Shown here in pieces: positions 1-25,780 of a stretch of 32,000 nucleotides of DNA (position 1 is its first letter; every line of letters starts with the position of its first letter). Below the pieces are notes generated by a model, which was not told where the DNA came from, made no database searches, and was given only the letters and a program-made list of their open reading frames with translations. The translations under genes were made by a program, and so were the position numbers. Origin of the DNA: Planctomycetales bacterium (GTDB lineage Bacteria; 4484-113; JAFGCY01); NCBI GenBank assembly GCA_022646745.1, contig CP060262.1, positions 1,890,001 through 1,922,000 on the forward strand, written 5' to 3'.

Positions 1-2737
1 CCGTCTCTGAGAATGAGATCGGCAAGCTCAGTGCTGAGCAGCAGGCACTGCTTTCAGACGCGGGCTGGAACCAGCCCTACATCGTCCCCAAGGCCGGCAC
101 CCCGATCCAGGGCCCGAGCCATGAGATGCTGATGGCACAGCTTCGTGAGATGGCTGAGCGCGGCGTCGAGATGCTGCCCCGCGGCGTCGAGGGAGAAGGC
201 ACGAAGGGAGCCAGCTGGCTGGACCAGCGCGGCTTCAACCCGGGCGTTGACAGTGGCCTTGTGAAGGGCCAGTACAAGCCCGCCGACACCGGCGCCAACG
301 GCGTGCCGGACTTCGGTTGCAACGCCTCCGGTGCGCTGATGGCTGACAACGGCCAGTCCGACATCGAGGACGTGATCTTCGCCTACGGCGGCAGCATGCC
401 GGCCCAGGCGATCAGCTGGGTGGCTGAGGGTCTGTCGACCATCAACCACTTCAACAGCGTCGGTGGTGGTGGTGACGATGCGTACACCGCCGTTTACCAG
501 CTGTTCGCTGACAGCGAGACCGCGAACCCGAGCAACCAGGGCAACAACGACATCGGTGAGATCGGCTACCGTGCCGACCTCGGCCCCTACGGCATCGGTT
601 ACGGCCAGGGCAGCGGCCCCAGCGGCACGCTGTGCGACGGAACCGCCTACGGTGTCCGCAATGCGTTCTGGATGACCTTCAACGAGAAGTTCTTCGCCCT
701 GCCGAGCGGCCAGGCGACTGCCCTGTACAACGTGCTGATCGCCCCCAGCGGTGATGAGGGTGCGGACCAGGTCAGCCCGATGGACACCTCCGCAAACTTC
801 CAGACCTTCTACTTTGGCAACGTGTCCTCCTGCTACGGGGATGCGATGATCGTCGGCATCAACGCAGCTGACAGCGGTTGCGACATGTTCGACGAGGCCT
901 CCAATGCGCCGTGGCAGGACCGTACGGCGGATGGCAACAGCTACCCGAACATCCTGCACAACCCGATCTTCGGCGTGATCCTGGCCCGCTGGGCCGGCGG
1001 CAACGCCAACTCGGACAGCCAGTTCTTCGGCGACGGCAGCTTCCCGAGTGCGGCGAGCATCGTCGGCTGGCCCGTGGCCCGTCCGTTCGCATACAACAAC
1101 GGCGCCGCGCTGCTCAATGCCAACGGTGCCTACTACGCCTTCGGCCAGTTCTTCGAGAAGGGTTTCATGTGGTGGATCGACTACGACCAGAACAGCAACC
1201 CGACCGCGAGCGACGAAGCGCAGATGTACGTCTACGATGGCAACAACACCTTCTGCGAGGGTGAGTACTCCAAGGTCGAGCCCGACGTGTTCTACGGCGG
1301 CGCTGGCGACCTCGGTGTCGGCGTGACCGTTGACGGCGTGCGCTACGGTGCCGGCGACTGGTCCGCCCCGCAGCTGTCCGACGACGGTACCTATTACCAG
1401 ATCGGCATGCTGCTGGACGAGAACACCGGCATCAGCAGCGTGACCATCGCTGCCAGCGCGCACGGCTTCGGCGGTGTGACGGCTGACGGTGCCGATGTGG
1501 GCCACCCCGAGTGGGGCGCCTGCCTGTACAAGCACAGCACATGGTCATGGCGTGACGGTACGGTCACGGCAGCCGGCACGGCCTTCGATCCGAGCCAGTT
1601 CGCCCGTACCCACACCTACAGCAGCAATGCGATCAAGACCAATGTCGAGGGTGTGTACACGATCCGTAACCAGGTCGTGGACGCCGATGACAACATCGCC
1701 TACGGTGACAGCCTTCCGATGCACCTCGGACACGGCGGCGCCGGTGGTGGCGGTGGCGACACCGAAGTCTGGGTCATCCGCAACGACGGCGGTGACTTCC
1801 AGCTCAACCTCGACGCCCTGACCGGCGACCTTGACGCCCTTGGCGTTGGCTACAGCGTGGTCGACTACAGCGCAACCGTCGCTGACGACTTCGCTGCCAA
1901 CCCGAACGCGAAGGTCGCGATCTGGTACCGTGGTGGACCGGGTGGCGCGGGTGAGTCCGCGACCTACACCACCGCCTGGACCAGCGGTGAGATGGACAAC
2001 TACATCCAGCTGATGAGCGACGGCTTCGGCGTGATGCTGATGAGCCAGAACCACGGCTACGATGGAGACCTGTTCTTCACCAACGGCTGGAGTGGCATCT
2101 ACGGTTATGCGACCCTGCCGGCCTCCGTCCCGGATGCCGACCGCCGCATGCCCTGGGCCTCCAGCCTGTGCACCGATGACGGTATCGGTTTCGGTGGAAC
2201 CCTTGGTTTCATCCCGACCGCCCCGAGCAACTTCATCGGTAACCCGAGCGGCGCGAACTTCGGTGCCGACGGTACCAACGCCGCGGAGCGCTACACCGGT
2301 AGTGGTTCCTCGGGTGAGCTGCCGATCAGCTTCGGCATGGCAACCGGCCGCCAGTACTGCGGTATCGGTTACTACAGCTCCTTCTTCGCGGGCTCCTGCG
2401 CAGGTCCGGCCTTCCGTGCCGGTATCGGCCACCAGCCCAACGCGCTTGGCTTCGACCTGGGCTTCCTGTCCTGGGGTAACAGCCAGGCCCCGGATGCCAA
2501 CATCGGCTTCTTCCCGAGCTACAGCCACAGCTTCGGCACCGGCAAGGTGTGGAACGTGGGCTACAGCTGGGCAGGCACCAGTGTGACGGCTTCCGCTTCC
2601 GGCACGATGGACCGCGCCGACCTGCTGAACAACATCCTCGGTTGGCTGGATGACAGCCTGACCTTCGGTGGTGGCGGCGGCGGTGGCGCCGGCTTCGAGG
2701 AGTACGATGGTCCTCCGGAGATCGTCTGCGTGACCCC
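1..2737 (+). repeat. Copy 1 of a >=2.7-kb near-identical intragenic repeat (5' part of the giant lipoprotein genes).
   Basis: The sense-frame protein and several off-frame ORF translations are letter-identical to those at +5356 (e.g. 54-1535 vs 5410-6891, 2062-2586 vs 7418-7942). The only A/B difference I found is T1895 vs C7251 (GCT/GCC, synonymous). The first divergent base is 2738 (g) vs 8094 (c). Confidence 0.9.
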
Positions 2738-4829
2738 GATCGCCTGGGACAAGGTGAACGGTGCTGTGACGCAGGGTACCGCCGGTGTGGGTGGCCAGAA
2801 CTACCCCGACCCGAACGGTTCCAACGTCTTCGGTCCGGATGTGACCCCCGGCTTTGACTACGCTGTTGAGTACGACACCGGCGTCCGCACCCCGGGCGAC
2901 GATGACGGCGGCCTGAATGGCAACGACATGGACTTCCAGTTCCCGTTCTACGGCTTCCTGCAGTGGGACGACACCCTCGGCGCCATCCCCGGCGACGTGG
3001 AGGCTGCTGAGATCATCGATGTCAACTACAGCGGTATCGCCCTGAGCGACATCTCCGCTGACTGGACCAAGTTCTCCGCCCCCTACGGTGGTGTGTTTGA
3101 TCCTTCCGCCCTCGGCCTCCGTCCGGCAGCCGCCTGGTTCCTGACCGAGACCGACAACTTCGGTAACATCAACACCGCCAGCTACGGCGATGCCTTTGGC
3201 CCGAACCTGACCTTCAGCAATGACGACGACCTGGTTGCCACCGAGGCGATCGCGCACTGGGCACAGGGCACGATGTACGGCGGTTCCCCGGCGTACCTCG
3301 CCTGGGCGATGTATCCCGGCCATAAGTCCGTCCAGTTCGACAACGCTGACATCGCCGTGGGTTACTACGGTGAGGGCGACGTGCTGTGGGAGGACTTCAT
3401 CGCCGACCACGACATCCAGGTCGGACGTGACCTGTGGGCCTACCTGCGCAGTGACTACTCCTTCACCACCCCCGGTGAGGGCCGCACGGTTGACTTCGAC
3501 TACAACACCGTATTCGGTTTCAACGGCGACCTGAACCGCAACGGCGTGGCCGGAGAGGCCGCTGACAAGTTCCCGGTGCGTGTCCGCTTCTTCACTGATG
3601 TGGATGCCTACGACGACTACTTCGATGACCTGAACGGTTACCCGAACTTCTGGCCTGATGGCGACTCCTTCATCGAGGGTGGTTGCTACATGGTGGACAA
3701 CGGACTGCCGAACTACCCGGTCAGCATCTTTGACGATTCCGACGAGGATGATCCGAAGGACACCGTCTCCGGCAGTGGCCCGGACTACAACGTCGCCCTG
3801 TACTTCGAGCTGGCCTTCGGCGTCGGCCCGTACGACGTGGAACTCGACTGGGATTACGACTTCATCGGCTGGGGCAACAGCGGTTACACCATGACCCTGC
3901 CCAACAGCCCGTTTGCCAACAATGGCAAGCTTTCCGATGTCGTGAACGTTGACCCGACCCCGGCTGGCGGCGACGGGGACTACTTCTTCGCCCTGCAGGT
4001 GACCGACAGTTCAGTTCCTGCTCGCACGGATGAGTTCTTCTGGCCCGATGCGGTGCCGCTGCAGCCCAGCCTGAGCTACCTTGTGGTGGATGACAGCACG
4101 CAGAGCGGTGACCTGAGCGCCAGCCAGTGCGCCACTGCCCTGACGACCATCTACGGCAGCCCCGTGTCCGTTGTCAACAGTGCCACGCTGAGCCCCGGTG
4201 ACCTGAATGGTTATTCAGTGGTCGTCTGGTGCACCAACCACCGCTTCAACAACTCCGGCGGTACGGGTCCGGGAATTGTCCAGTCTGACTATGACGTGAT
4301 CGCACCGTACATGGACCAGGGTGGTAACCTCGTGATGTTCTGGCCCTGCCAGGGACCATTCAGTGGTACGACGCAGATTTACTACAACCAGGGACAGATC
4401 GACCTGTGCAAGGACTACCTCGGTTACATCAACTCGACCTTCCGGATGTACTACCGCAACGGCACATCCTCAAGCTACGATCCGCACATCACGGATAGCG
4501 GACTGAGTATCGGCCCCGGCGCGAGCAACATGAACTACATTGATCGCAACGGTTCCAACCCCGGATACTACTGCGGATACTTCAATGATTCGGACCTGAC
4601 CGGTTCTGACGCGGCCTGGTCGTTCACGTCCTCCCGCCGGATCATCCAGCGTTACGACTCAAACGGAGCTTCGGAGGGCGGAGTGGCCCTGGTCAACCAG
4701 TTCTACTTCTGGAATTCCGAAGCGACCTCCTCACTGAGCGGTTCCCCGCTTGGTGGCAGTGTCGCAGCGTCCCAGGTGATCATGTTGAAGAACATGCTCA
4801 ACTACATGGACCCGCTGCTGCTGCCCTAG
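1..4829 (+). CDS. Giant secreted lipoprotein, paralog A. 5' end lies outside the window (reading frame 3). Unknown family, C-terminal cassette type 1.
   Basis: The ORF is open from the window edge; codons read from nt 3 (VSENEIGKLSAEQQ...). The ATG at 126 in the ORF track is internal. Nt 1-2737 match nt 5357-8093 of paralog B, which has a lipoprotein signal peptide upstream. Stop is TAG at 4827-4829, followed by a rho-independent terminator. Composition is rich in G/D/N/Y/F/W and poor in K/R, with three poly-Gly linkers. Confidence 0.85.
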   Translation, partial: VSENEIGKLSAEQQALLSDAGWNQPYIVPKAGTPIQGPSHEMLMAQLREMAERGVEMLPRGVEGEGTKGASWLDQRGFNPGVDSGLVKGQYKPADTGANGVPDFGCNASGALMADNGQSDIEDVIFAYGGSMPAQAISWVAEGLSTINHFNSVGGGGDDAYTAVYQLFADSETANPSNQGNNDIGEIGYRADLGPYGIGYGQGSGPSGTLCDGTAYGVRNAFWMTFNEKFFALPSGQATALYNVLIAPSGDEGADQVSPMDTSANFQTFYFGNVSSCYGDAMIVGINAADSGCDMFDEASNAPWQDRTADGNSYPNILHNPIFGVILARWAGGNANSDSQFFGDGSFPSAASIVGWPVARPFAYNNGAALLNANGAYYAFGQFFEKGFMWWIDYDQNSNPTASDEAQMYVYDGNNTFCEGEYSKVEPDVFYGGAGDLGVGVTVDGVRYGAGDWSAPQLSDDGTYYQIGMLLDENTGISSVTIAASAHGFGGVTADGADVGHPEWGACLYKHSTWSWRDGTVTAAGTAFDPSQFARTHTYSSNAIKTNVEGVYTIRNQVVDADDNIAYGDSLPMHLGHGGAGGGGGDTEVWVIRNDGGDFQLNLDALTGDLDALGVGYSVVDYSATVADDFAANPNAKVAIWYRGGPGGAGESATYTTAWTSGEMDNYIQLMSDGFGVMLMSQNHGYDGDLFFTNGWSGIYGYATLPASVPDADRRMPWASSLCTDDGIGFGGTLGFIPTAPSNFIGNPSGANFGADGTNAAERYTGSGSSGELPISFGMATGRQYCGIGYYSSFFAGSCAGPAFRAGIGHQPNALGFDLGFLSWGNSQAPDANIGFFPSYSHSFGTGKVWNVGYSWAGTSVTASASGTMDRADLLNNILGWLDDSLTFGGGGGGGAGFEEYDGPPEIVCVTPIAWDKVNGAVTQGTAGVGGQNYPDPNGSNVFGPDVTPGFDYAVEYDTGVRTPGDDDGGLNGNDMDFQFPFYGFLQWDDTLGAIPGDVEAAEIIDVNYSGIALSDISADWTKFSAPYGGVFDPSALGLRPAAAWFLTETDNFGNINTASYGDAFGPNLTFSNDDDLVATEAIAHWAQGTMYGGSPAYLAWAMYPGHKSVQFDNADIAVGYYGEGDVLWEDFIADHDIQVGRDLWAYLRSDYSFTTPGEGRTVDFDYNTVFGFNGDLNRNGVAGEAADKFPVRVRFFTDVDAYDDYFDDLNGYPNFWPDGDSFIEGGCYMVDNGLPNYPVSIFDDSDEDDPKDTVSGSGPDYNVALYFELAFGVGPYDVELDWDYDFIGWGNSGYTMTLPNSPFANNGKLSDVVNVDPTPAGGDGDYFFALQVTDSSVPARTDEFFWPDAVPLQPSLSYLVVDDSTQSGDLSASQCATALTTIYGSPVSVVNSATLSPGDLNGYSVVVWCTNHRFNNSGGTGPGIVQSDYDVIAPYMDQGGNLVMFWPCQGPFSGTTQIYYNQGQIDLCKDYLGYINSTFRMYYRNGTSSSYDPHITDSGLSIGPGASNMNYIDRNGSNPGYYCGYFNDSDLTGSDAAWSFTSSRRIIQRYDSNGASEGGVALVNQFYFWNSEATSSLSGSPLGGSVAASQVIMLKNMLNYMDPLLLP

Positions 4830-4870
4830 TGCAAGCTGCCTGAGCCTGGTCGGCTGAACTGACCAAACCG

Positions 4871-4900
4871 GCCCCGGAGTCACTGGCTCCGGGGCTTTTT
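4871..4900 (+). terminator. Rho-independent terminator of giant paralog A.
   Basis: Stem gccccggag (4871-4879), loop tcactgg, stem ctccggggc (4887-4895), then ttttt (4896-4900). Confidence 0.8.
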
Positions 4901-5016
4901 CATTTCCGGATGTTGCAGAGAGGAAATTCTCAGCAGATACATATAAGTAAAGTACGGTCAAGTGATCATCTGCTTAATCGGATCAATCGAACCCTTTACC
5001 TTTCCTTAACGATGGG

Positions 5017-5046
5017 GTTATAGTCTAGGTGCACAGCATATAGGTA
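5017..5046 (+). promoter_or_regulatory. Putative promoter and conserved transcript-start block for giant paralog B.
   Basis: GTTATAGT-N6-GCACAGCATATAGGTA sits in an AT-rich island. The same block with the same N6 spacing recurs upstream of paralog C at 15619-15648. TATAGT (5019-5024) is a 5/6 match to the -10 consensus TATAAT. A possible -35, TTTACC, lies at 4995-5000 (N18 spacing). The implied 5' UTR is about 140 nt. Confidence 0.35.
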
Positions 5047-5172
5047 AACGGGCCAACGAACGCAGGAGGAACACGCATGCGTGTCAGTGCCTTAATGGGG
5101 CTACCTAGCGCAATCGCGCGCCATCTTCTTCGTTCTTACCCACTTTCATCCCACACCCTTACAGGAGTTTGT

Positions 5173-8100
5173 ATGAAGACTCATGTGAACTGGTGTAAGC
5201 ACCTCGGGCTAACGCTTGTGGCGCTTACGGTAGTCTTCGTAGCAGCTTCCTGCGGTGGTAACGGCGGTGGTATCTCGGCGAATGTCGAGACCCAGACCGG
5301 TACCTCCAACACCGTGATCGACGGAGGTCGTAACGGTGTTGTATCAGCGGAGCTTACCGTCTCTGAGAATGAGATCGGCAAGCTCAGTGCTGAGCAGCAG
5401 GCACTGCTTTCAGACGCGGGCTGGAACCAGCCCTACATCGTCCCCAAGGCCGGCACCCCGATCCAGGGCCCGAGCCATGAGATGCTGATGGCACAGCTTC
5501 GTGAGATGGCTGAGCGCGGCGTCGAGATGCTGCCCCGCGGCGTCGAGGGAGAAGGCACGAAGGGAGCCAGCTGGCTGGACCAGCGCGGCTTCAACCCGGG
5601 CGTTGACAGTGGCCTTGTGAAGGGCCAGTACAAGCCCGCCGACACCGGCGCCAACGGCGTGCCGGACTTCGGTTGCAACGCCTCCGGTGCGCTGATGGCT
5701 GACAACGGCCAGTCCGACATCGAGGACGTGATCTTCGCCTACGGCGGCAGCATGCCGGCCCAGGCGATCAGCTGGGTGGCTGAGGGTCTGTCGACCATCA
5801 ACCACTTCAACAGCGTCGGTGGTGGTGGTGACGATGCGTACACCGCCGTTTACCAGCTGTTCGCTGACAGCGAGACCGCGAACCCGAGCAACCAGGGCAA
5901 CAACGACATCGGTGAGATCGGCTACCGTGCCGACCTCGGCCCCTACGGCATCGGTTACGGCCAGGGCAGCGGCCCCAGCGGCACGCTGTGCGACGGAACC
6001 GCCTACGGTGTCCGCAATGCGTTCTGGATGACCTTCAACGAGAAGTTCTTCGCCCTGCCGAGCGGCCAGGCGACTGCCCTGTACAACGTGCTGATCGCCC
6101 CCAGCGGTGATGAGGGTGCGGACCAGGTCAGCCCGATGGACACCTCCGCAAACTTCCAGACCTTCTACTTTGGCAACGTGTCCTCCTGCTACGGGGATGC
6201 GATGATCGTCGGCATCAACGCAGCTGACAGCGGTTGCGACATGTTCGACGAGGCCTCCAATGCGCCGTGGCAGGACCGTACGGCGGATGGCAACAGCTAC
6301 CCGAACATCCTGCACAACCCGATCTTCGGCGTGATCCTGGCCCGCTGGGCCGGCGGCAACGCCAACTCGGACAGCCAGTTCTTCGGCGACGGCAGCTTCC
6401 CGAGTGCGGCGAGCATCGTCGGCTGGCCCGTGGCCCGTCCGTTCGCATACAACAACGGCGCCGCGCTGCTCAATGCCAACGGTGCCTACTACGCCTTCGG
6501 CCAGTTCTTCGAGAAGGGTTTCATGTGGTGGATCGACTACGACCAGAACAGCAACCCGACCGCGAGCGACGAAGCGCAGATGTACGTCTACGATGGCAAC
6601 AACACCTTCTGCGAGGGTGAGTACTCCAAGGTCGAGCCCGACGTGTTCTACGGCGGCGCTGGCGACCTCGGTGTCGGCGTGACCGTTGACGGCGTGCGCT
6701 ACGGTGCCGGCGACTGGTCCGCCCCGCAGCTGTCCGACGACGGTACCTATTACCAGATCGGCATGCTGCTGGACGAGAACACCGGCATCAGCAGCGTGAC
6801 CATCGCTGCCAGCGCGCACGGCTTCGGCGGTGTGACGGCTGACGGTGCCGATGTGGGCCACCCCGAGTGGGGCGCCTGCCTGTACAAGCACAGCACATGG
6901 TCATGGCGTGACGGTACGGTCACGGCAGCCGGCACGGCCTTCGATCCGAGCCAGTTCGCCCGTACCCACACCTACAGCAGCAATGCGATCAAGACCAATG
7001 TCGAGGGTGTGTACACGATCCGTAACCAGGTCGTGGACGCCGATGACAACATCGCCTACGGTGACAGCCTTCCGATGCACCTCGGACACGGCGGCGCCGG
7101 TGGTGGCGGTGGCGACACCGAAGTCTGGGTCATCCGCAACGACGGCGGTGACTTCCAGCTCAACCTCGACGCCCTGACCGGCGACCTTGACGCCCTTGGC
7201 GTTGGCTACAGCGTGGTCGACTACAGCGCAACCGTCGCTGACGACTTCGCCGCCAACCCGAACGCGAAGGTCGCGATCTGGTACCGTGGTGGACCGGGTG
7301 GCGCGGGTGAGTCCGCGACCTACACCACCGCCTGGACCAGCGGTGAGATGGACAACTACATCCAGCTGATGAGCGACGGCTTCGGCGTGATGCTGATGAG
7401 CCAGAACCACGGCTACGATGGAGACCTGTTCTTCACCAACGGCTGGAGTGGCATCTACGGTTATGCGACCCTGCCGGCCTCCGTCCCGGATGCCGACCGC
7501 CGCATGCCCTGGGCCTCCAGCCTGTGCACCGATGACGGTATCGGTTTCGGTGGAACCCTTGGTTTCATCCCGACCGCCCCGAGCAACTTCATCGGTAACC
7601 CGAGCGGCGCGAACTTCGGTGCCGACGGTACCAACGCCGCGGAGCGCTACACCGGTAGTGGTTCCTCGGGTGAGCTGCCGATCAGCTTCGGCATGGCAAC
7701 CGGCCGCCAGTACTGCGGTATCGGTTACTACAGCTCCTTCTTCGCGGGCTCCTGCGCAGGTCCGGCCTTCCGTGCCGGTATCGGCCACCAGCCCAACGCG
7801 CTTGGCTTCGACCTGGGCTTCCTGTCCTGGGGTAACAGCCAGGCCCCGGATGCCAACATCGGCTTCTTCCCGAGCTACAGCCACAGCTTCGGCACCGGCA
7901 AGGTGTGGAACGTGGGCTACAGCTGGGCAGGCACCAGTGTGACGGCTTCCGCTTCCGGCACGATGGACCGCGCCGACCTGCTGAACAACATCCTCGGTTG
8001 GCTGGATGACAGCCTGACCTTCGGTGGTGGCGGCGGCGGTGGCGCCGGCTTCGAGGAGTACGATGGTCCTCCGGAGATCGTCTGCGTGACCCCCATCTCC

Positions 8101-10014
8101 TGGAACAAGGTTGATGGTTCCGTGACGCAGGGTACCGCCGGTGTGGGTGGCCAGAACTACCCCGACCCGAACGGTTCCAACGTCTTCGGTCCGGATGTGA
8201 CCCCCGGCTTTGACTACGCTGTCGAGTACGACACCGGCGTCCGTACCCCGGGCGACGATGACGGCGGCCTTAATGCCAACGACATCGACTTCCAGTTCCC
8301 GTTCTACGGCTTCCTTGAGTGGGACGACACCCTCGGCGCCATCCCCGGCGACGTGGAGGCTGCTGAGATCATCGATGTCAACTACAGCGGTATCCCGCTG
8401 AGCGACATCTCCGCTGACTGGACCAAGTTCAACGCTCCCTACGGTGGTGTGTTTGATCCTTCCGCCCTTGGCCTGAACCCGGCTGCCGCCTGGTTCCTGA
8501 CCGAGACCGACACCTTCGGCAGCATCAACACCGCCGGCTACGGCGATGCCTTCGGTCCGAACCTGGTGTTCGACAGCGATAGTGAGTTCGTTGCCACCGA
8601 GGCGATCGCGCACTGGGCACAGGGCACGATGTACGGCGGCTCCCCGGCGTACCTCGCCTGGGCGATGTTCCCCGGCCACAAGAGCGTGAAGTACAACGCC
8701 GGCGGTACCGCCGTCGGTTACTACAGCGAGGGTGGCATCCTCTGGGAGGACTTCATCCGCGACCACGACATCCAGGTCGGACGTGACCTGTATGCCTACC
8801 TGCGCAGCGACTACTCCTTCACCACCCCCGGTGAGGGCCGTACCGTTGACTTTGACTACGACACCCTCGTCGGCTGGAACGGCGACATGAACCGCAACGG
8901 AACCACCGGCGAAGCCGGCGACAAGTTCCCGGTGCGTGTCCGCTTCTTCACCGATGTGGACGTCTACGACGATTACTTCGATGACCTGAACGGTTACCCG
9001 AACTTCTGGCCTGATGGCGACTCCTTCATCGAGGGTGGTTGCTACATGGTGGACATCGGTGACCCGAACTACCCGGTGCTGATCTTCGACGACGCCGATG
9101 AGGACGACCCGAAGGACACCGTCTCCGGTACCGGCCCGTCCTATGACGTGGACCTGTACTTCGAGCTGGCCTTCGGCGCCGGCCCGTACGACGTGGAGCT
9201 TGACTGGAACTATGACTTCATCGGTCATGGCAACAGTGGCTTCACCCAGGCCGTCGGCACCTTCGCCGCCAACGGCAAGAACAACGACAGCGTGAACGTC
9301 GACCCGACCCCGGCTGGTGGAGATGGCAACTACTTCTTCAGCCTCGAAGTGACCGACAGCACGCTGCCGACCCCGACCACCGACAGCTTCTTCTGGCCCG
9401 ATGCGGTGCCGCTGATGCCCGGTGCGCTGTTCTATGACGATATGTCCGCGTACAACACGTACAACGATGCCAACGCCGCCGGCTGGCTGCGTGGTACCGG
9501 CCCGGGCCATAGTGGCGCGGTGAACTGGCATATCGGCCCGCAGTGGGAGACGGCGTTCAACCTGTACAACGGCCAGGCCTGGCACTGCAACGACGGCGCT
9601 GACGGCACCAACGGCGGTACCTACAACGGCGTTCCGAAGTCCACCCTGCGTTCTCCGGCGGTCAACGCTCCTCCGGGATCCGACCCCTGGCTGCACTTCC
9701 GCGCCAACCTGGGCTTCCAGGAGAGCACCACATTCGACCAGTTCTGGCTCGGATGGGACAGCTCCGCAGCTGCCAACAACGAGGCTTCCGCCACATGGAC
9801 CCAGCGTTTCGGTCCGTTCGGCAACTTCGACGCGGCATGGGGCAACAGTGCCCAGACGCAGCTTCGTACCTACAACATCTCCGCCCCGGGCGGTTCCACC
9901 TTCTACCTGATGTTCTCGCTGGAGTCGCTTGACTCGATCGGCAACGCAGCGGATGGTGTGCACCTTGACCCGGTGACCTGCACGGACGGCAACTTCCCCG
10001 ATCCGACCTGGTAA
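5173..10014 (+). CDS. Giant secreted lipoprotein, paralog B (1613 aa). Unknown family, C-terminal cassette type 2 (jelly-roll/MAM-like pattern).
   Basis: ATG at 5173 is preceded by AGGAG (5164-5168). N-terminus MKTHVNWCKHLGLTLVALTVVFVAASCGGNGGG is a signal peptide plus lipobox Cys. The ORF-track start at 5077 adds a non-signal-like extension. Stop is TAA at 10012-10014, followed by a terminator. Confidence 0.85.
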   Translation: MKTHVNWCKHLGLTLVALTVVFVAASCGGNGGGISANVETQTGTSNTVIDGGRNGVVSAELTVSENEIGKLSAEQQALLSDAGWNQPYIVPKAGTPIQGPSHEMLMAQLREMAERGVEMLPRGVEGEGTKGASWLDQRGFNPGVDSGLVKGQYKPADTGANGVPDFGCNASGALMADNGQSDIEDVIFAYGGSMPAQAISWVAEGLSTINHFNSVGGGGDDAYTAVYQLFADSETANPSNQGNNDIGEIGYRADLGPYGIGYGQGSGPSGTLCDGTAYGVRNAFWMTFNEKFFALPSGQATALYNVLIAPSGDEGADQVSPMDTSANFQTFYFGNVSSCYGDAMIVGINAADSGCDMFDEASNAPWQDRTADGNSYPNILHNPIFGVILARWAGGNANSDSQFFGDGSFPSAASIVGWPVARPFAYNNGAALLNANGAYYAFGQFFEKGFMWWIDYDQNSNPTASDEAQMYVYDGNNTFCEGEYSKVEPDVFYGGAGDLGVGVTVDGVRYGAGDWSAPQLSDDGTYYQIGMLLDENTGISSVTIAASAHGFGGVTADGADVGHPEWGACLYKHSTWSWRDGTVTAAGTAFDPSQFARTHTYSSNAIKTNVEGVYTIRNQVVDADDNIAYGDSLPMHLGHGGAGGGGGDTEVWVIRNDGGDFQLNLDALTGDLDALGVGYSVVDYSATVADDFAANPNAKVAIWYRGGPGGAGESATYTTAWTSGEMDNYIQLMSDGFGVMLMSQNHGYDGDLFFTNGWSGIYGYATLPASVPDADRRMPWASSLCTDDGIGFGGTLGFIPTAPSNFIGNPSGANFGADGTNAAERYTGSGSSGELPISFGMATGRQYCGIGYYSSFFAGSCAGPAFRAGIGHQPNALGFDLGFLSWGNSQAPDANIGFFPSYSHSFGTGKVWNVGYSWAGTSVTASASGTMDRADLLNNILGWLDDSLTFGGGGGGGAGFEEYDGPPEIVCVTPISWNKVDGSVTQGTAGVGGQNYPDPNGSNVFGPDVTPGFDYAVEYDTGVRTPGDDDGGLNANDIDFQFPFYGFLEWDDTLGAIPGDVEAAEIIDVNYSGIPLSDISADWTKFNAPYGGVFDPSALGLNPAAAWFLTETDTFGSINTAGYGDAFGPNLVFDSDSEFVATEAIAHWAQGTMYGGSPAYLAWAMFPGHKSVKYNAGGTAVGYYSEGGILWEDFIRDHDIQVGRDLYAYLRSDYSFTTPGEGRTVDFDYDTLVGWNGDMNRNGTTGEAGDKFPVRVRFFTDVDVYDDYFDDLNGYPNFWPDGDSFIEGGCYMVDIGDPNYPVLIFDDADEDDPKDTVSGTGPSYDVDLYFELAFGAGPYDVELDWNYDFIGHGNSGFTQAVGTFAANGKNNDSVNVDPTPAGGDGNYFFSLEVTDSTLPTPTTDSFFWPDAVPLMPGALFYDDMSAYNTYNDANAAGWLRGTGPGHSGAVNWHIGPQWETAFNLYNGQAWHCNDGADGTNGGTYNGVPKSTLRSPAVNAPPGSDPWLHFRANLGFQESTTFDQFWLGWDSSAAANNEASATWTQRFGPFGNFDAAWGNSAQTQLRTYNISAPGGSTFYLMFSLESLDSIGNAADGVHLDPVTCTDGNFPDPTW
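5357..8093 (+). repeat. Copy 2 of the near-identical 2.7-kb intragenic repeat.
   Basis: Same as 1-2737 at offset +5356. See the evidence for that feature. Confidence 0.9.
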
Positions 10015-10043
10015 GGAACTGAGCCTGATCGACTGAATCGATT

Positions 10044-10073
10044 GCCCCCGGGGCATGTCCCCGGGGGCTTTTT
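10044..10073 (+). terminator. Rho-independent terminator of giant paralog B.
   Basis: Stem gcccccgggg (10044-10053), loop catgt, stem ccccgggggc (10059-10068), then ttttt (10069-10073). A second 8-bp hairpin follows at 10079-10100 (cagttgcc-ttttct-ggcaactg). Confidence 0.85.
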
Positions 10074-10110
10074 CATTCCAGTTGCCTTTTCTGGCAACTG
10101 CGACGCCGGA

Positions 10111-10121
10111 TGTGCTATGTT
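10111..10121 (+). promoter_or_regulatory. Possible extended -10 promoter element for the ankyrin gene.
   Basis: tgTGcTATGTT resembles the TGTGYTAGAAT motif upstream of FG-GAP genes 1 and 2. It lies between the upstream terminator and the RBS GGGAGA (10129-10134). No clear -35. Confidence 0.25.
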
Positions 10122-10140
10122 AGCCCCGAGGGAGAAAGCC

Positions 10141-11409
10141 ATGCCGCGATTCCAGCTGATCATCGCCCTGCTCGCAGCCCTGTGCTGCCTCTATGCATCC
10201 TGTGATAAACCTGCCCCGGGTCAGTCCGCAGACGGCCAGGCTACCGCAAAGGATGGGAATGATTCGCCAACCCCTGCCGCTGAAGCCGGGCCGGCGCCAC
10301 AGACGATCAACCCCTCTGAATTGCCGGACCCGGACCACAAGCCACCAAGGCAGTACAATGAGGAGGAACTCGCACGCTTCGAGGAAATGCTTGCGGTTGA
10401 CAGTGCGGAAACCCGCAACAAGCTGGTTGACGACGGGGCAATGCTGGATGCTGACCACCTGATTGACTACATCAGCATGGGCCGGATGAACATCGTGGTG
10501 CGCATGATCGCCTCCGGCATGGACCTGAACCGGCCGGCTGCGAACGGCAAGCTGCCACTGGCTGAAGCGATCCTGCAGAATGACCCGTGGCTGATCGAGC
10601 AGATGATCAAGCACGGCGCGGATCCGACGCTGACTGACGACCCGACTCAAGGCGTCGGTCGCAGCATGCTCCACTATGCCACGAAGATGAATGATGCCGG
10701 CCTGGTGGAGCGGCTGCTTGAGCTCGGTGTGCCGGTTGACATCAGGGACGTCAATGACCAGACACCGCTGGACGTGGCGGCGACCTATGGCGAGACTGAG
10801 GCGATGGCTGTGCTGCTTGACAACGGTGCGGATCCGGTGCGCATGGACAAGGGCGGGAGCATCCCGGTGCTGCTGGCCGCCGGCTATGGACACACGGACG
10901 CGGTGCGCCTGCTGCTGCAGCATGGGGCCGACATCAACTTCCAGCATGAACGGGGTTGGACACCGCTGCTGCTGTCGATCTACTACGATCAACTTGACAC
11001 GGCACAGTACGTACTTGACAACGGTGGCGACATCAAGGCGCAGCTGGAGACGGGCTACGGGGCTGCCGGGATCGCCGCCACACTTGGCGACCCGGAGATG
11101 CTGCGCCTCGTGATCGATGCCGGGGCACCGCTGGATGACATCACCGCCCAGGACGGCCGAAACCTGGTCCATATCTGTGCGATCAACAACCTCGGCAGTT
11201 TCATCCGTGAACTGGCGGAGGCCGGCGTGGACCCTGCAGCAGAGGACAGTGAAGGCCGTACTGCGCTGGAGCTGGCACGCGAAGCGAACGACACGGAGGC
11301 GGAGCAGGTGCTGATGGAACTGACAGGGGCACCTCCGGCACCGCCGGAAACGGACGACCCGGCTGCCGAGTCAGCGGATTCGGAACCACCAGCCGGCAGC
11401 GCAAGTTGA
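10141..11409 (+). CDS. Ankyrin-repeat lipoprotein (422 aa).
   Basis: ATG at 10141 follows a GGGAGA RBS. N-terminus MPRFQLIIALLAALCCLYASCDKP has a lipobox with Asp at +2. A P/A/E-rich linker is followed by about 8-9 ankyrin-like repeats (e.g. GRSMLHYATKMNDAGLVERLLELGVPVDIRD, QTPLDVAATYGETEAMAVLLDNGADP, GWTPLLLSIYYDQLDTAQYVLDNGGDI, GRTALELAREANDTEAEQVL), then an acidic P-rich tail. The ORF-track start at 10042 overlaps the upstream terminator and is rejected. Confidence 0.85.
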   Translation: MPRFQLIIALLAALCCLYASCDKPAPGQSADGQATAKDGNDSPTPAAEAGPAPQTINPSELPDPDHKPPRQYNEEELARFEEMLAVDSAETRNKLVDDGAMLDADHLIDYISMGRMNIVVRMIASGMDLNRPAANGKLPLAEAILQNDPWLIEQMIKHGADPTLTDDPTQGVGRSMLHYATKMNDAGLVERLLELGVPVDIRDVNDQTPLDVAATYGETEAMAVLLDNGADPVRMDKGGSIPVLLAAGYGHTDAVRLLLQHGADINFQHERGWTPLLLSIYYDQLDTAQYVLDNGGDIKAQLETGYGAAGIAATLGDPEMLRLVIDAGAPLDDITAQDGRNLVHICAINNLGSFIRELAEAGVDPAAEDSEGRTALELAREANDTEAEQVLMELTGAPPAPPETDDPAAESADSEPPAGSAS

Positions 11410-11550
11410 TTCGCAACTCTCAGCAACATTGTGACTGTCAGCCCATGGAACGACCGCAGCTGAGAAGGGATAATCAGTTGTCAATTCCAGCGGGAAACTG
11501 GCGCGGAATTGGCCGCAAAAAGCCTGTCCCAGACTGACATGCGCGCGTTG

Positions 11551-11573
11551 CAGGCTCCCTGCTGTGTTAGAAT
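11551..11573 (+). promoter_or_regulatory. Putative extended -10 promoter for FG-GAP/ASPIC gene 1.
   Basis: caggctccctgcTGtgtTAGAAT. A nearly identical 21-23 nt block, caggctctgcTGtgcTAGAAT, occurs at 21903-21923 upstream of FG-GAP gene 2. TAGAAT (11568-11573) is a 5/6 match to the -10 consensus. Confidence 0.4.
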
Positions 11574-11707
11574 CAGACTGGTTGAAATTGAGGAGATCCG
11601 CTCCGTCATCGAGTCTCTCTCAGAGACCGGGCCGCTATTGTTGGAAACGTCCTGCCGGCACCCCCACTGGATGTTCTGCGATGGACCGGATCAAGGCGGG
11701 TAATCAT

Positions 11708-14700
11708 ATGCACAGATACATCTTCGTCGCAGTCCTCGGGCTGCTGCTCTACTCCTGCGCTGACAACAAGGGCCAGCCTCCCGTGAGCGGTGGCATGACT
11801 GCCGGCGGCGGGCAGCAGGCGGGATCAGGCGGCGGGCTGTTCGCCGACATGCCTGAGTCCGATGCCCAGGTCAGCTCCGTCGAGTTCCAGGCGGGCAGCT
11901 CCGGTGGCGCCTTCGTGAAGCTTGAGCCGTCCGAGACCGGGATGGACTTCACCTCCGAGGTGCTGAGCAAGGAACTCAAGCTGGATGCCATTGCTGTGCA
12001 GGCCGGAATGGCAACGGGTGACTACGATGGCGATGGCGACATCGACATCTACCTGTGCGGCATCGAGAATGACAACGCCTTGTACCGCAACGAGGGTGGC
12101 TGGCAGTTCACGGACGTAACCGATGAGGCCGCCAGCGGCCTGCGCATGACCGGCGACATGGCCGAGACCGCGGTGATGGCCGACCTCAACGGCGACAATG
12201 TTCTGGACATCTACGTCGGGGTGCGCGGCGGCGTCAACCGCTACTTCGCCGGCAACGGCGACGGCACCTTCAGCGACCGCAGCGAGGAGTCCGGGCTGGA
12301 CAGCGCACGGTCCACCGTCGTCAGCGCGGTGTTCGACGTTGACAACGACGGCGACCTCGATGTCTACAACGCCAACAACCGCAAGGGCCGAAACGACGAC
12401 CGCAAGATCGAGGACATGCGCAGTGACGGACGCTACTTCAACATGATGAAGAACATGGAGACCGGGGAGGTCAAGCTCGACGAGACCATGCACCCCGAGC
12501 ATTACATGGACAAGGCCGGTAAGATCCGCCTGCGCCCTGACAATGACGACCTGCTGATCAACGATGGCAACGGGCACTTCACCAACGAGGCCCTGGAGCG
12601 CGGCATCCAGCCCGCCGGCTGGGCGCTGAACGCGCTGGCCTGCGACTTCAACAACGACGGCTGGACGGACCTGCAGGTCTCGGGCGACTTCGACACCCCA
12701 GACTGGTACTACATCAATGACGGCAAGGGCAACTTCACCGAGCGCGGTGAGGACATGCTGCGCGTCACCAGTTACTTCGGGATGGGCAGCGACGCCGGTG
12801 ACCTGAACCATGACGGCTGGATGGACTATATGGTGGGTGACATGTCGCCGACCGGCTACAAGGACGGCAAGAAGCAGAGTGGCGACATGAACCTCTCGCG
12901 CTACGAGCTGGTGCACTACGAGCCGCACCAGAACATGCGCAACACCGTGCTGCTGAACCGTGGCGACGGCTGGATGAGTGAGGCGGCCGCACTGCTCAAC
13001 GTGAAGAGCACCGACTGGACCTGGAGCATCCGGCTGGCTGACCTGAACAGCGACGGCATCCTCGAAATCCTGGCAACCAACGGCTACATCAGCACCTCCG
13101 TCGAGTACGACGTGCAGCGCAGGATCAAGGACATGTACGAGGCCGGCGCCAGCATCGAGGAGATCGATGCCTATGAGCTGTCGCTGCCCGCGCTGGAAAC
13201 CGACGACATCATCTTCACGGCCAGCGAGCCGCTGAACTACAAGAAGGCCCCGGACAACTGGGGGATCCACGATCAGGCGGTGTCCTGCGGATGCGTGCTG
13301 CAGGACATGGACGGAGACGGTGACCTCGACTTCGTCGTCAACAACACCGCCGCACAGGTCGGCGTGTACCGCAATGACCTTGACAATGGCAACATGGTGC
13401 TGCTGGACCTGCGCCAGGAGGGCCCAAACCGCGAGGCCGTCGGCGCGCGCGTGAAGGCCTACTGCGGTGACGACATGTTCATGCAGGACGTGATCCTCGC
13501 CCGCGGCTACGCCAGCGGTGAGAGCAGCCGGATCCACCTCGGGCTCGGTGAGCACCAGAAGATCGACGCACTGTGGATCCGCTGGCCTGACAACAAGGTC
13601 GAGGTGCTGCGAGACCTAGATGCCAACATGCTGTACAGCATCAGCCGCGGAAGCAAGCTCGTGGATTATGCAAAGGACCAGCACCAGCCCATGTTCAGCC
13701 AGCAGGCGCTGAACTGGCAGCAGCAGGAACTGGACACACTGGATGCCGAATTCGCGAAGGAGCCGCTGTTGCCGGTGCGCCGCAGCACGCTCGGCACCGG
13801 CCTCGGCGTGGCGGACATGAATGCCGATGGCAACCTGGACATCTACTTCGCCGGCCCGCAGGACCAGCAGGGCAAGCTGTTCACCGGCCGCGCAGACGGT
13901 GGCTTCGCCGGTTCGCCGATGCTGGACGACACGGTGGATGCCCGCCCGGAGAGCATGGGCGTGCTGCTATTCGAGGCCAATGGTGACGGCAGGCCCGACA
14001 TGCTGCTGACCAGCGGCAGCAACGAAAGCGAGGACCAGCCGCAGCGCTACCTGGACCGCATCTACCTCAGTGAGGGCGACGGCTGGAAGGCCGGTGCCCT
14101 GCCGGTTGAGCAGGTGCCCTCCGGCAGCGCCGCCGCCAGCGACATTGACAACGACGGCGACCTCGACCTGGTGATCGCCGGCCGGCTCAAGCCCTATACC
14201 TATGGCCAGGGTGTGCACAGCCACGTGCTGGAGAACGACGGCCAGGGCGGCTTCACGCTGGCAACCGGGCGCATCGCCCCCGGGCTGGCGGACAGCGGCC
14301 CGGTATCGGACATCTGCTTCGCCGACATCAACGGTGACGGCCGCGATGACCTGCTCGTCGCGCAGGAGTTCGGCAGCGTCGAATGGTGGGCCAACAATGA
14401 TGGCAACCTGCTGCGCCAGGGGCCGGTCGGCCCGACCGGGATGTGGCAGTCGGTGGTTGCGGCTGACTTTGACAACGATGGTGACAATGACCTGATCTGT
14501 GGCAACTGGGGCTTGAACACCAAGTACCACCCTTCCGCGGAGAAGCCCTATATGGTGATCGCGGATGACTTCGATGGCAACGGTACCCGTGACGTGGTCG
14601 AGGTCAAGTTCGGCAGCGACGGCACGCTGCTGCCGGGCCGCGGGCGTTCCTGCAGCGGCTATGCGATCTCCACCGTGCCGCAGAAATTCCCGACCTGGGA

Positions 14701-15430
14701 GATGTTCGCCAACGCTACACTGGAGGAGATCTACGGCCCGGTGGACGCGGTATCCGAGAAACTGACTGCCGACCACGTGGCCAGCGCATATTTCGAGAAT
14801 GACGGCAGCGGTAACTTCAGCATGACTGACCTGCCGACGATGGCCCAGGTCAGCTGTGTAATGGGTGTTGCCGTGGGCGATTTCAACAATGACGGCAAGC
14901 TCGATGCCTGGTTGAACAACAACTTCCGCAACACCCAACCCGAGGAAACCCGCTGGGTCTGTGGTTACGGCACGCTGATGCTGGGCAACGGTGACGGCAG
15001 CTTCAACTGCCTGGAGCCGCTGGATTCAGGGATCCGCGTCATTGCTGAAGGGCGCGGGGCCGTGGCTGCCGACTTCAATGGTGATGCCTGCCTGGATATC
15101 GTGATGAGCGTAAGCAATTCCAGCCCGCAGGTGGCCCTGATGGATCCCGCCCGTGCACAGGGCAAGGGCCTGCTGGTCACGCTGACCGGTCCGGCCGGCA
15201 ACCCGGCAGCTGTCGGGGCCAGGCTTGCACTGGAACTGTCCGATGGCCAGGTGCTGCATCGCGAGGTGCAGGCCGGCAGCGGATACCTTTCCAGCTACGT
15301 GGGTCCCGTGCACTTCGGAATTCCCACCGGCAGCACTGCCAGCAAGCTGACTGTCAGCTGGCCGGATGGCAGCACTAGTGAGGAAACGAGCTTCAGCGGA
15401 AACTCTGTAAGCCTCAGCCACGGAAGCTGA
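11708..15430 (+). CDS. FG-GAP/VCBS repeat + ASPIC/UnbV domain lipoprotein, CRTAC1-like (1240 aa), paralog 1.
   Basis: ATG at 11708 gives MHRYIFVAVLGLLLYSCADNKG, a signal peptide with lipobox. Many calcium-binding FG-GAP/VCBS motifs are present (GDYDGDGDIDIY, DVDNDGDLDVY, DFNNDGWTDL, DMDGDGDLDFVV, DIDNDGDLDLVI, DFDNDGDNDLI, DFNNDGKLDAW). Two ASPIC/UnbV-like modules are present (AVGARVKAYCGDDMFMQDVILARGYASGESSRIHLGLG...LWIRWPDN and AVGARLALELSDGQVLHREVQAGSGYLSSYVGPVHFGIP...LTVSWPDGS). Confidence 0.9.
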   Translation: MHRYIFVAVLGLLLYSCADNKGQPPVSGGMTAGGGQQAGSGGGLFADMPESDAQVSSVEFQAGSSGGAFVKLEPSETGMDFTSEVLSKELKLDAIAVQAGMATGDYDGDGDIDIYLCGIENDNALYRNEGGWQFTDVTDEAASGLRMTGDMAETAVMADLNGDNVLDIYVGVRGGVNRYFAGNGDGTFSDRSEESGLDSARSTVVSAVFDVDNDGDLDVYNANNRKGRNDDRKIEDMRSDGRYFNMMKNMETGEVKLDETMHPEHYMDKAGKIRLRPDNDDLLINDGNGHFTNEALERGIQPAGWALNALACDFNNDGWTDLQVSGDFDTPDWYYINDGKGNFTERGEDMLRVTSYFGMGSDAGDLNHDGWMDYMVGDMSPTGYKDGKKQSGDMNLSRYELVHYEPHQNMRNTVLLNRGDGWMSEAAALLNVKSTDWTWSIRLADLNSDGILEILATNGYISTSVEYDVQRRIKDMYEAGASIEEIDAYELSLPALETDDIIFTASEPLNYKKAPDNWGIHDQAVSCGCVLQDMDGDGDLDFVVNNTAAQVGVYRNDLDNGNMVLLDLRQEGPNREAVGARVKAYCGDDMFMQDVILARGYASGESSRIHLGLGEHQKIDALWIRWPDNKVEVLRDLDANMLYSISRGSKLVDYAKDQHQPMFSQQALNWQQQELDTLDAEFAKEPLLPVRRSTLGTGLGVADMNADGNLDIYFAGPQDQQGKLFTGRADGGFAGSPMLDDTVDARPESMGVLLFEANGDGRPDMLLTSGSNESEDQPQRYLDRIYLSEGDGWKAGALPVEQVPSGSAAASDIDNDGDLDLVIAGRLKPYTYGQGVHSHVLENDGQGGFTLATGRIAPGLADSGPVSDICFADINGDGRDDLLVAQEFGSVEWWANNDGNLLRQGPVGPTGMWQSVVAADFDNDGDNDLICGNWGLNTKYHPSAEKPYMVIADDFDGNGTRDVVEVKFGSDGTLLPGRGRSCSGYAISTVPQKFPTWEMFANATLEEIYGPVDAVSEKLTADHVASAYFENDGSGNFSMTDLPTMAQVSCVMGVAVGDFNNDGKLDAWLNNNFRNTQPEETRWVCGYGTLMLGNGDGSFNCLEPLDSGIRVIAEGRGAVAADFNGDACLDIVMSVSNSSPQVALMDPARAQGKGLLVTLTGPAGNPAAVGARLALELSDGQVLHREVQAGSGYLSSYVGPVHFGIPTGSTASKLTVSWPDGSTSEETSFSGNSVSLSHGS

Positions 15431-20587: not shown

Positions 20588-20618
20588 GCTGCCTCGAGCC
20601 TGATCGACTGAATCGATT

Positions 20619-20648
20619 GCCCCCGGGGCCTGTCCCCGGGGGCTTTTT
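20619..20648 (+). terminator. Rho-independent terminator of giant paralog C.
   Basis: Stem gcccccgggg (20619-20628), loop cctgt, stem ccccgggggc (20634-20643), then ttttt. Homologous to 10044-10073, including the flanking gagcctgatcgactgaatcgatt. Confidence 0.85.
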
Positions 20649-20684
20649 CATGAATAATTGAAGTAAAAAGGCCGTCTAAGTAAC

Positions 20685-21899
20685 ATGCCCCCGATCCATC
20701 CCGCGATCCGTAACATATCCGTAGCCATCCTGCTGGGCCTGCTGGCTGGCTGTCCCGCCGGGCAAACCGGTGAAAGCGGTTCCACCAATGTGGATGCCGC
20801 CACTGCAGATGCAAACCCCGCAGCCGATGCTGAGAAGCAGGCTGATGCGGGAACAGATGCACAGGCTGCCCCAGCCGGGCAGGAAAACATGACCTGGCGC
20901 GCCTACATCGATCCGAAGATGTCGATGGAGGAGATCGAGGCGCTCAGTGAGGAGGATGCCCGCGCCAAGCTGGAAGAGCTGGGTGTGCCATTCGAGGCCT
21001 TCAACTTCCACGAGGCGATTGAAATGGACCCGCTCGAGCTGTGCGCGCTGTTCCTGCAGGCCGGCATGCCGGTGGACAGCCCCAACATGGCAGGCGTATC
21101 CCCGCTGCAGGCAGCCTCATACCAGCAGAAGATAGAGCATATGAAGTTGTTCATTGAGCATGGCGCGGACATCAACTACGAGGACCCGCGCTTCCGGGCC
21201 ACCCCGGTGGACTTCGCCGTTGGCAGTGGCAACATGGAGGTGCTGCAGATCCTGCTGGACCAGGGGGCCGACCCCGCCGGCGGAAGCCAGTCGCGCCCGA
21301 TCCTGATTGACGCGATCGAGTCCGGCAGCCTGGAGATGTTCAACTTCATCTATGGGAAGTTCCCGGATGTGACAGTGACCGACCGCACCGGCCAGGGTAC
21401 GCTGATGAACGCCTGCCTGACGGGCCACCTGGATATCGCGCAGCGACTGGTGGAGCTCGGGGCGGAGATCAACCAGATTGAGCCGCAGGGAGGCACTCCG
21501 CTGGCGGCGGCGGCCTACCGCGGCAACTGGGACGTGTTCGACTTCCTGCTGCAGCATGGTGCGGACCCGATGCAGAGCTACCGCGGCAACCGCAACCTGC
21601 TGTTCGAGTTCGGCTACCACCAGGACTATCCGCATGAGCTGGCCGAACAGCTGATCGAACAGGGCATGGACATCAACCAGCAGGATGAACGCAGTGGAGT
21701 AACGCCACTGATCAATGCGGCAAACAATGCGAACATGGACCTCGTGAAGCTGTTGCTGGACCATGATGCGGACCCTGACAAGCGCGATGTGAATGGCATG
21801 AGTGCCTGTGACTTCGCGAAGTTCACGGAGAACGGCGACATGGTGCTGCTGTTCAGCAAGTACGGCATCACCAGTGAGCGGGAGTTCCCCCAGCAGTAG
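20685..21899 (+). CDS. Ankyrin-repeat lipoprotein (404 aa), paralog 2.
   Basis: N-terminus MPPIHPAIRNISVAILLGLLAGCPAGQ has a canonical LAGC lipobox. An acidic A/D-rich linker is followed by ankyrin-like repeats (GVSPLQAASYQQKIEHMKLFIEHGADINYED, ATPVDFAVGSGNMEVLQILLDQGADP, GTLMNACLTGHLDIAQRLVELGAEIN, GTPLAAAAYRGNWDVFDFLLQHGADP, VTPLINAANNANMDLVKLLLDHDADPDKRD). Only distantly similar to the 10141-11409 product. Confidence 0.85.
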   Translation: MPPIHPAIRNISVAILLGLLAGCPAGQTGESGSTNVDAATADANPAADAEKQADAGTDAQAAPAGQENMTWRAYIDPKMSMEEIEALSEEDARAKLEELGVPFEAFNFHEAIEMDPLELCALFLQAGMPVDSPNMAGVSPLQAASYQQKIEHMKLFIEHGADINYEDPRFRATPVDFAVGSGNMEVLQILLDQGADPAGGSQSRPILIDAIESGSLEMFNFIYGKFPDVTVTDRTGQGTLMNACLTGHLDIAQRLVELGAEINQIEPQGGTPLAAAAYRGNWDVFDFLLQHGADPMQSYRGNRNLLFEFGYHQDYPHELAEQLIEQGMDINQQDERSGVTPLINAANNANMDLVKLLLDHDADPDKRDVNGMSACDFAKFTENGDMVLLFSKYGITSEREFPQQ

Positions 21900-21902
21900 C
21901 CA

Positions 21903-21923: not shown

Positions 21924-22019
21924 GCAGCAGGAGCGGGACTGTTCAGCCCAGGCCGCCCCTGACCAGACATTGAATTCCAGACCGGCAGCCCAACTGCCGG
22001 CGGGCCCGAGAGGAAGGAC

Positions 22020-25754: not shown

Positions 25755-25780
25755 TCAGCACCAGTCAATCGATGGCAACC

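Follow-up and report, generated by a model that had tools for sequence, protein, structure and literature searches.

A 32,000-nucleotide window of the genome of an uncultured activated-sludge bacterium (Planctomycetales bacterium, contig CP060262.1, positions 1,890,001 to 1,922,000) carries three giant paralogous lipoprotein genes, A, B and C, all on the same strand, and the analysis concerned the segment of A at positions 2738-4061 of the window and its counterparts in B and C. The source is a 4.11-Mb single-contig metagenome-assembled genome (MAG) that carries the NCBI label "Planctomycetales"; related MAGs are labelled UBP7. Six paralogs are encoded in this genome (A, B, C, H7A35_07550, H7A35_15075 and H7A35_15895), all of them full length at ~1,610-1,670 amino acids (aa). 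Ectopic gene conversion very probably homogenises the 5' part of this six-copy family, and the mosaic of discordant similarity between A, B and C would mark the place where that homogenisation fades. Judged from the sequences, 2738-4061 straddles the point, near position 3700, at which concerted evolution gives way to divergent evolution.

The encoded proteins have a common plan: a signal peptide, two N-terminal regions split by a glycine-rich linker, a second, poly-glycine linker, a middle domain of ~435 aa and a C-terminal domain. The C-terminal domain is of two unrelated kinds, type 1 in A, H7A35_07550, H7A35_15075 and H7A35_15895, and type 2 in B and C.

Divergence along the genes and in a second species

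Over the first 2.7 kb, A and B differed at one site and C at 25 sites, which were clustered. The synonymous divergence (dS) in this part was 0.002 between A and B and 0.03 between either of them and C. Perfect identity of A and B stopped 44 nt downstream of the poly-glycine linker. The dS was 0.19-0.25 over 2738-3700, where the ratio of nonsynonymous to synonymous divergence (dN/dS, or omega) was ~0.3, 0.63-0.89 over 3701-4061, and ~1 in the C-terminal domains. The companion genes that follow B and C (D to H) were used to date the duplication; dS was 1.3 between D and F and 0.6-0.85 among E, G and H. The dS of the 5' 2.7 kb (0.002-0.03) was therefore far below that of the co-duplicated flanking genes (0.6-1.3), a contrast which indicates that the modules were duplicated long ago and that the 5' ends of their giant genes have the look of recent copies.

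A second species, represented by the genome AC1.30, has ~86% nucleotide identity to this genome. In the N-terminal region the identity between paralogs was 0.989-1.000 within this genome and 0.980-0.995 within AC1.30, compared to 0.854-0.865 between the genomes; over 2738-3700 the corresponding values were 0.86-0.92, 0.945-0.994 and 0.80-0.855. In both of these regions the sequences grouped by genome, and over 3701-4061 and the C-terminal domain they grouped by orthologue. Over 3701-4061, C was 0.870 identical to AC_L007b, above its identity to B (0.747), and in the C-terminal domain B was 0.78-0.81 identical to AC_L007a. Grouping by genome at the 5' side and by orthologue at the 3' side identified 2738-3700 as a partly homogenised transition zone. 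On the evidence of these alignments, the duplications were shown to predate the split from the second species. A first-pass annotation, made from the sequence of this stretch alone, had described the N-terminus as a constant scaffold; its constancy was borne out, but rather than a passive scaffold the region appears to be the main product of the same conversion process that left the mosaic.

At the protein level, A consisted of the N-terminus of B joined to the middle and C-terminus of H7A35_07550, and all 412 variable columns agreed with this. This hybrid appears to be the product of a recent long-tract event. Independent short-read contigs reproduced the order A to B, and the order B, ankyrin gene, FG-GAP gene, C, including the 5,743-nt spacing from B to C; on the same contigs, single patches had been swapped since the strains split. 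Over 1.5 kb, B and its orthologue on L005 had an identity of 0.94-0.99, and A was likewise matched by its orthologue on L008. A distant relative (L002 1-16375, ~40% aa identity) has three giant genes in tandem, which encode 2,124-2,166 aa; between the second and third copies the identity was 82-96% over the 5' half and 62-78% over the 3' half, a weaker 5'-to-3' gradient. Tandem arrays with a 5'-biased gradient of similarity thus recur in the family.

The giant-gene copies of AC1.30 (L007 1-4343 and 10034-14836; L003 10046-15063) were broken into several open reading frames (ORFs) by frameshifts, which are either indel errors of a long-read assembly or the mark of pseudogenes.

The mosaic between positions 2738 and 4061

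The first-pass annotation had described A 2738-4061, B 8094-9396 and C 18679-19960 as a three-way mosaic in which C alternates between matching A and matching B, and had attributed this alternation to repeated short-tract recombination. The three segments were homologous, at fixed offsets from A of +5356 (B) and +15941 (C). Sixteen of the 17 motifs that it had listed occurred exactly as given in the two copies named, and the third copy lacked them; the other, given as 'FGFNGDL...', reads LGFNGDL in C.

The 223 informative sites in this segment (A the odd one at 86, B at 62 and C at 75) fell into 111 runs, compared to 148.4±7.0 expected under permutation (z -5.3; z -4.5 with one pattern per codon). 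When only synonymous codons were used there were 35 runs compared to 44.4 expected (p 0.009, z -2.5), and protein-level selection alone is therefore insufficient as the cause of the clustering. A GENECONV-type permutation test returned B=C tracts at A-coordinates 3234-3342 (p 6e-4) and 3042-3151 (p 0.008). When the DNA of a fourth paralog, L011, was added, all three 2-2 splits were present (40, 17 and 12 sites) and formed 25 runs compared to 40.2 expected (p 4e-5). The pairwise homoplasy index (PHI) was not significant with four sequences and site-count windows, and was significant (p<0.001) with eight sequences. The AC1.30 trio has a mosaic of its own (z -8.1). Taken together, the runs, GENECONV-type and four-taxon tests and the second species support repeated short-tract recombination as the source of the alternating affinity.

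The mosaic was not significant over the whole of the segment to which it had been assigned. Over 2738-3700 alone there were 55 runs compared to 83.6 expected (z -5.5), whereas over 3700-4061 alone the runs test was not significant (z -1.6; -0.7 per codon). All of A, B and C were mosaic, as claimed, but a three-way account is incomplete because the genome has six paralogs. C was also not a simple recombinant of A and B: in a 3SEQ-like test, B as the child was at least as strong as C as the child, and several of the motifs that C shares with A or with B were ancestral. Polarisation with the other paralogs and outgroups showed that AWDKVNGAV and KYN.GGT..GI are the ancestral, widespread states. 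The private patches are SWNKVDGSV in B and QFDNADIA..DV in A, the latter already present in the orthologue of A. Part of the apparent alternation of C arises because A-specific and B-specific patches take turns along the segment. The B-only patch opens the divergent zone; all other paralogs and the outgroups have the A/C version, and no donor was found for it among the sampled sequences. At 3234-3342, A and its orthologue P0034 have the same version, whereas the outgroups have the state of B and C.

Proposed mechanism

In partial concerted evolution, very probably the process at work here, homology-dependent ectopic conversion repeatedly overwrites the 5' 2.7-2.9 kb of the giant genes, most strongly among the three tandem copies. 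Tracts are long in the N-terminal region and short, ~25-110 nt, past the poly-glycine linker, so that 2738-3700 has become a patchwork in which recently shared stretches lie among long-diverged ones. Past ~3700, conversion has been negligible since the species split, and purifying selection maintains in each copy its own orthologous 3' middle region and C-terminal domain. The recombination would presumably be RecA-mediated, and its boundary may be set by selection that keeps the C-terminal specificity modules distinct. The outcome would be a shared scaffold with differentiated binding ends; the last ~1 kb of the giant genes probably carries specificity.

Several points weigh against this account. 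The donors of the patch at B 8094-8121 and of the QFDNADIA patch of A were not among the sampled sequences, and import or local bursts of substitution are possible sources of both. Perfect identity ends at the domain linker, a limit for which selection rather than recombination mechanics may be responsible. Recombination was deduced from one assembled genome per lineage and not observed as such, and the six-way comparison was at the protein level only, with H7A35_07550, H7A35_15075 and H7A35_15895 represented by their proteins and not by DNA. Guanine plus cytosine at third codon positions (GC3) was flat along the genes, with no rise in the converted part as a sign of GC-biased conversion, a result that is uninformative rather than contrary.

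Alternative explanations

Natural module swapping, in which the 5' 2.7 kb and possibly a 56-nt element 3' of B and C would act as portable homology arms among six expressed loci, is rather unlikely on the present sequences. If it were true, whole middle and C-terminal cassettes as well as sub-domain patches would be exchanged, with A as one recent swap, and the population would carry many combinations of giant lipoproteins that might, for example, vary the binding of substrates or partners or allow escape from phage. A gene on an ENA scaffold (L010; WANG18-1_SAMN08389244 scaffold_5414, gene 374-5386; P0026) was a zero-mismatch patchwork of all six paralogs. It was rejected as a new combination since such a patchwork on a short-read scaffold is most likely an assembly chimera; L011, which is similar with fewer joins, was rejected as probably chimeric.

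The same annotation had taken the mosaic as the generation of combinatorial diversity, that is, as a dedicated, antigenic-variation-like system that shuffles the middle domain for selected combinations. Such a system is unlikely, even though the mosaic recurs in two genomes and closely related strains carry different patches in their orthologues. The lipoproteins have C-terminal folds that are predicted to be adhesin-like, and the variable part lies between the conserved 5' region and the conserved 56-nt 3' element, which could be homology arms. However, dN/dS was ~0.3 between paralogs in the middle region, and only 0.06-0.17 between orthologues (B compared to L005, A compared to L008), in the middle domain as well as in the C-terminal one. 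The 3' middle region and C-terminal domain of each paralog were stably inherited across strains and species. No silent cassettes were found; A, B and C, like the proteins of the three other paralogs, are full length, and the copies are separately terminated. A Pfam scan of the window proteins found no recombinase or reverse transcriptase, the only inverted repeat in the window was one 33-nt, 76% chance match, and no phase-variation repeat was present in or before the giant genes. Substitutions were of all types, mostly at third codon positions, with a spectrum that was not A-biased. The sole new combination seen elsewhere was the probable chimera L010. The claim of diversity generation was not sustained.

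Specific systems of this kind were also tried as candidates and rejected. A diversity-generating retroelement was dismissed for lack of a reverse transcriptase in the window and of adenine-specific substitutions. A shufflon was dismissed for lack of a recombinase and of flanking inverted repeats, all copies being on the same strand, and a silent-cassette system because every copy is a complete, full-length gene. A polymorphic toxin locus was rejected because the Pfam, NCBIfam and PADLOC scans gave no Rhs/YD, VENN or other demarcation motif and no toxin domain, and because the type-2 fold resembles MAM and cleaved-adhesin domains.

Import of the patches from other strains or species by allelic exchange, instead of copying within the genome, is quite unlikely. 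Similarity within genomes exceeded similarity between genomes over the N-terminal region and 2738-3700 in two species, an excess that only intragenomic exchange explains. Identical tracts were common to B and C, to A and B, and to A and C, and the hybrid structure of A, B and H7A35_07550 also favours intragenomic exchange. These results outweigh the observations that the paralogs of this genome offer no donor for the private patches at B 8094-8121 and A 3284-3383 and that dS between A and its orthologue on L008 was locally raised, to 0.56.

An assembly or polishing artefact, produced by mis-mapped short reads or by path-hopping in the assembly graph, is very improbable. The source is a single-contig MAG, the related scaffold L010 looks chimeric, and short-read MAG contigs break within the giant genes; nevertheless, gene order, spacing and paralog-specific sequence recurred in the independent assemblies L005 and L008, which come from other samples, and the second species had the same pattern. 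All reading frames were intact, and the 25 clustered 5' differences of C would have been removed by blanket polishing. The absence of any recombination, with extreme constraint on the N-terminus and lineage-specific bursts of substitution in the middle region, accounts for some clusters that are lineage-specific derived patches, but is hardly credible and is taken as already refuted by the dS and orthologue/paralog contrasts, since synonymous divergence varies ~100-fold along the gene, clustering holds at synonymous codons, and N-termini differ by 14% between species and by <=1-2% between paralogs whose C-termini predate speciation.

Comparison with known systems

In Helicobacter pylori, babA/babB(/babC) and homA/homB have one segment that is similar within a strain and another that is similar between strains (PMC3960876, citing Pride & Blaser 2002), and intragenomic conversion between such paralogs, most likely RecA-dependent, gives chimeric genes (PMC3960876). 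These expressed outer-membrane adhesin genes would appear to be the closest analogues of the giant genes. As in babA/babB and homA/homB, complete paralogs lie at separate loci, with one segment homogenised and the other orthologous. The polarity is reversed, since H. pylori homogenises the 3' membrane-anchoring segment and the homogenised part of the giant genes is the 5' 2.7 kb. The proteins also differ, in that the giant genes encode unrelated lipoproteins of ~1,650 aa without a known domain in a free-living, uncultured wastewater bacterium. For the giant genes, no tie to phase variation or to host adaptation is known.

Other families share some of these features. Neisseria opa and Treponema pallidum tpr comprise several full-length genes for surface proteins, with conserved and variable regions and segmental recombination. 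Immune-driven diversifying selection acts on both families, and repeats make opa phase-variable as well; in contrast, the orthologues here are under purifying selection and have no phase-variation repeat in or before the genes. Short-tract conversion produces mosaics in a surface protein in Neisseria pilE/pilS, Borrelia vlsE, T. pallidum tprK and Mycoplasma genitalium MgPa. Silent-cassette systems need one expression site and promoterless, truncated donor cassettes, whereas every giant-gene copy is complete, from its ribosome-binding site and start codon through the signal peptide to the terminator. The duplicates tufA/tufB and the rRNA operons are kept near-identical by recurrent conversion, so that paralogs are closer than orthologues, and are homogenised over their full length; in the giant genes only a part is homogenised, the boundary is graded and lies by a domain linker, and the C-terminal domains include unrelated kinds. 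Polymorphic toxin/Rhs loci have a constant N-terminus, a variable C-terminal tip and a downstream partner gene. The giant genes resemble them in the large conserved N-terminal region, the alternative C-terminal domains and the small gene after B and C, but the ankyrin proteins encoded downstream are lipoproteins too, and A has none after it.

The process is already known and no new mechanism is proposed; the gene family is new. It offers a clean case of partial concerted evolution, in which conversion fades from 5' to 3' past an inter-domain linker and is timed by the orthologues of a second species, in an uncultured and barely studied lineage. Trees built from the 5' part mislead on orthology, which is carried only by the last ~1 kb. 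There is also a consequence for databases, in that short-read assemblies break in the giant genes or form chimeras across them.

Family searches and predicted structure

Scans with Pfam, NCBIfam and PADLOC and a PDB sequence search, with whole proteins and sub-regions, gave zero family matches for the giant proteins; the type-1 C-terminal domain of A had no Pfam or PDB match. Homologues were rare, with 15 clusters found among 5.8 billion proteins in a word-indexed search. With the middle domain as query, an exhaustive hidden Markov model (HMM) search gave only 44 cluster representatives out of 1.84 billion, and these hits, short fragments aside, were large proteins that matched at a similar position. 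A metagenome scan yielded only relatives of ~30% identity. The protein family is undescribed and without annotation.

AlphaFold2 modelling of the middle region and C-terminus gave a predicted local distance difference test (pLDDT) of 62.6, in which the usable parts were an immunoglobulin (Ig)-like sandwich and a C-terminal jelly-roll. The Ig-like beta-sandwich, which closes the middle domain and lies within 3701-4061, had a pLDDT of ~88. The N-terminus was modelled at pLDDT 48.7 and gave no significant match in Foldseek. In Foldseek the type-2 jelly-roll, taken from a moderate-confidence model, gave matches with probability 1.0, E 3e-4 to 2e-3 and a target-normalised template modelling score of up to 0.52; it resembled the MAM domain, the cleaved-adhesin domain of gingipains and the ligand-binding domain of ephrin receptors. 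These predicted folds point, if weakly, to the giant lipoproteins as probably being surface-exposed binding proteins.

Gene layout and neighbouring genes

The coordinates of the giant genes, their parts and their companions are collected in Table 1. The lipoprotein signal of B reads MKTHVNWC...VFVAASCGG. B and C start with an AGGAG ribosome-binding site followed by ATG, and the B-C homology begins exactly there. A strong rho-independent terminator closes each of A, B and C. With their own start signals and terminators, A, B and C are complete, separate transcription units.

Table 1. Features of the giant lipoprotein genes and their surroundings (window positions)
Feature	Position	Strand	Basis or remark
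Paralog A	3-4829	+	Frame open from base 3, 5' end cut by window edge; full-length protein P0030, 1670 aa, type-1 C-terminal domain
Paralog B	5173-10014	+	P0001, 1613 aa; type-2 C-terminal domain
Paralog C	15758-20587	+	P0023, 1609 aa; type-2 C-terminal domain
Homogenised 5' tract	A 3-2737, B 5359-8093, C 15944-18678	+	dS, identity
Poly-glycine linker GGGGGGGAG	2667-2693	+	Between N-terminal region and middle domain (DNA and protein)
Mosaic transition zone	A 2738-3700, B 8094-9056, C 18679-19641	+	Runs test, dS
B-only patch	8094-8121	+	8 changes in 28 nt; SWNKVDGSV compared to AWDKVNGAV
Tract with B=C, A differing	A 3042-3151, B 8398-8507, C 18983-19092	+	p 0.008
Tract with B=C, A with private patch	A 3234-3342, B 8590-8698, C 19175-19283	+	p 6e-4
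Divergent 3' third	A 3701-4061, B 9057-9396, C 19642-19960	+	Evolves by orthology; Ig-like beta-sandwich
Type-1 C-terminal domain of A	4062-4826	+	Common to H7A35_07550, H7A35_15075 and H7A35_15895; unrelated to B/C
Type-2 C-terminal domain	B 9397-10011, C 19961-20584	+	Predicted jelly-roll
3' element with rho-independent terminator	After B 10021-10076, after C 20596-20651	+	98% identical
Related terminator after A	4870-4896 (related stretch 4843-4900)		
Ankyrin-repeat (D) and FG-GAP/ASPIC-UnbV (E) lipoproteins	10042-15430	+	Companions of B (Pfam)
Ankyrin-repeat (F) and FG-GAP/ASPIC-UnbV (G, H) lipoproteins	20685-29823	+	Companions of C (Pfam)

The 56-nt 3' element after the stop codons of B and C consists of GAGCCTGATCGACTGAATCGATT, a 10-bp GC hairpin and a T-run. 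Its two copies are 98% identical, compared to only 50-66% identity in the preceding 600 nt of coding sequence, and it was also found 3' of the orthologue of B on L005. A role as a homology anchor at the 3' side, or as a regulatory 3' untranslated region, is possible.

Antisense ORFs of great length, the longest of 1,051 aa, lie over the giant genes at 6901-10056, 17486-20488 and 1545-3410, all on the minus strand. They are the by-products to be expected at 63-65% GC and a GC3 of ~0.83, and not genes.

Genes E, G and H (11564-15430, 22020-25754 and 26095-29823) were 70-76% identical overall and locally 65% to 84% identical. With their dS of 0.6-0.85, they escape homogenisation, unlike the adjoining giant genes.

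Further downstream, on the minus strand, a gene for an extracytoplasmic function (ECF) sigma factor (Sigma70_r2/r4; 30880-31497) adjoins one for a 253-aa protein without a Pfam match, the pair occupying 30122-31497. The 253-aa protein is probably the anti-sigma factor of its neighbour, and the pair, which adjoins the lipoprotein cluster, is a candidate regulator. An imperfect array of ~7 copies of the heptamer CAGGGAA (31624-31673) lies in the divergent intergenic region between the minus-strand sigma-factor gene and a lipoprotein gene that starts at 31903, and is a possible slippage-prone regulatory repeat.

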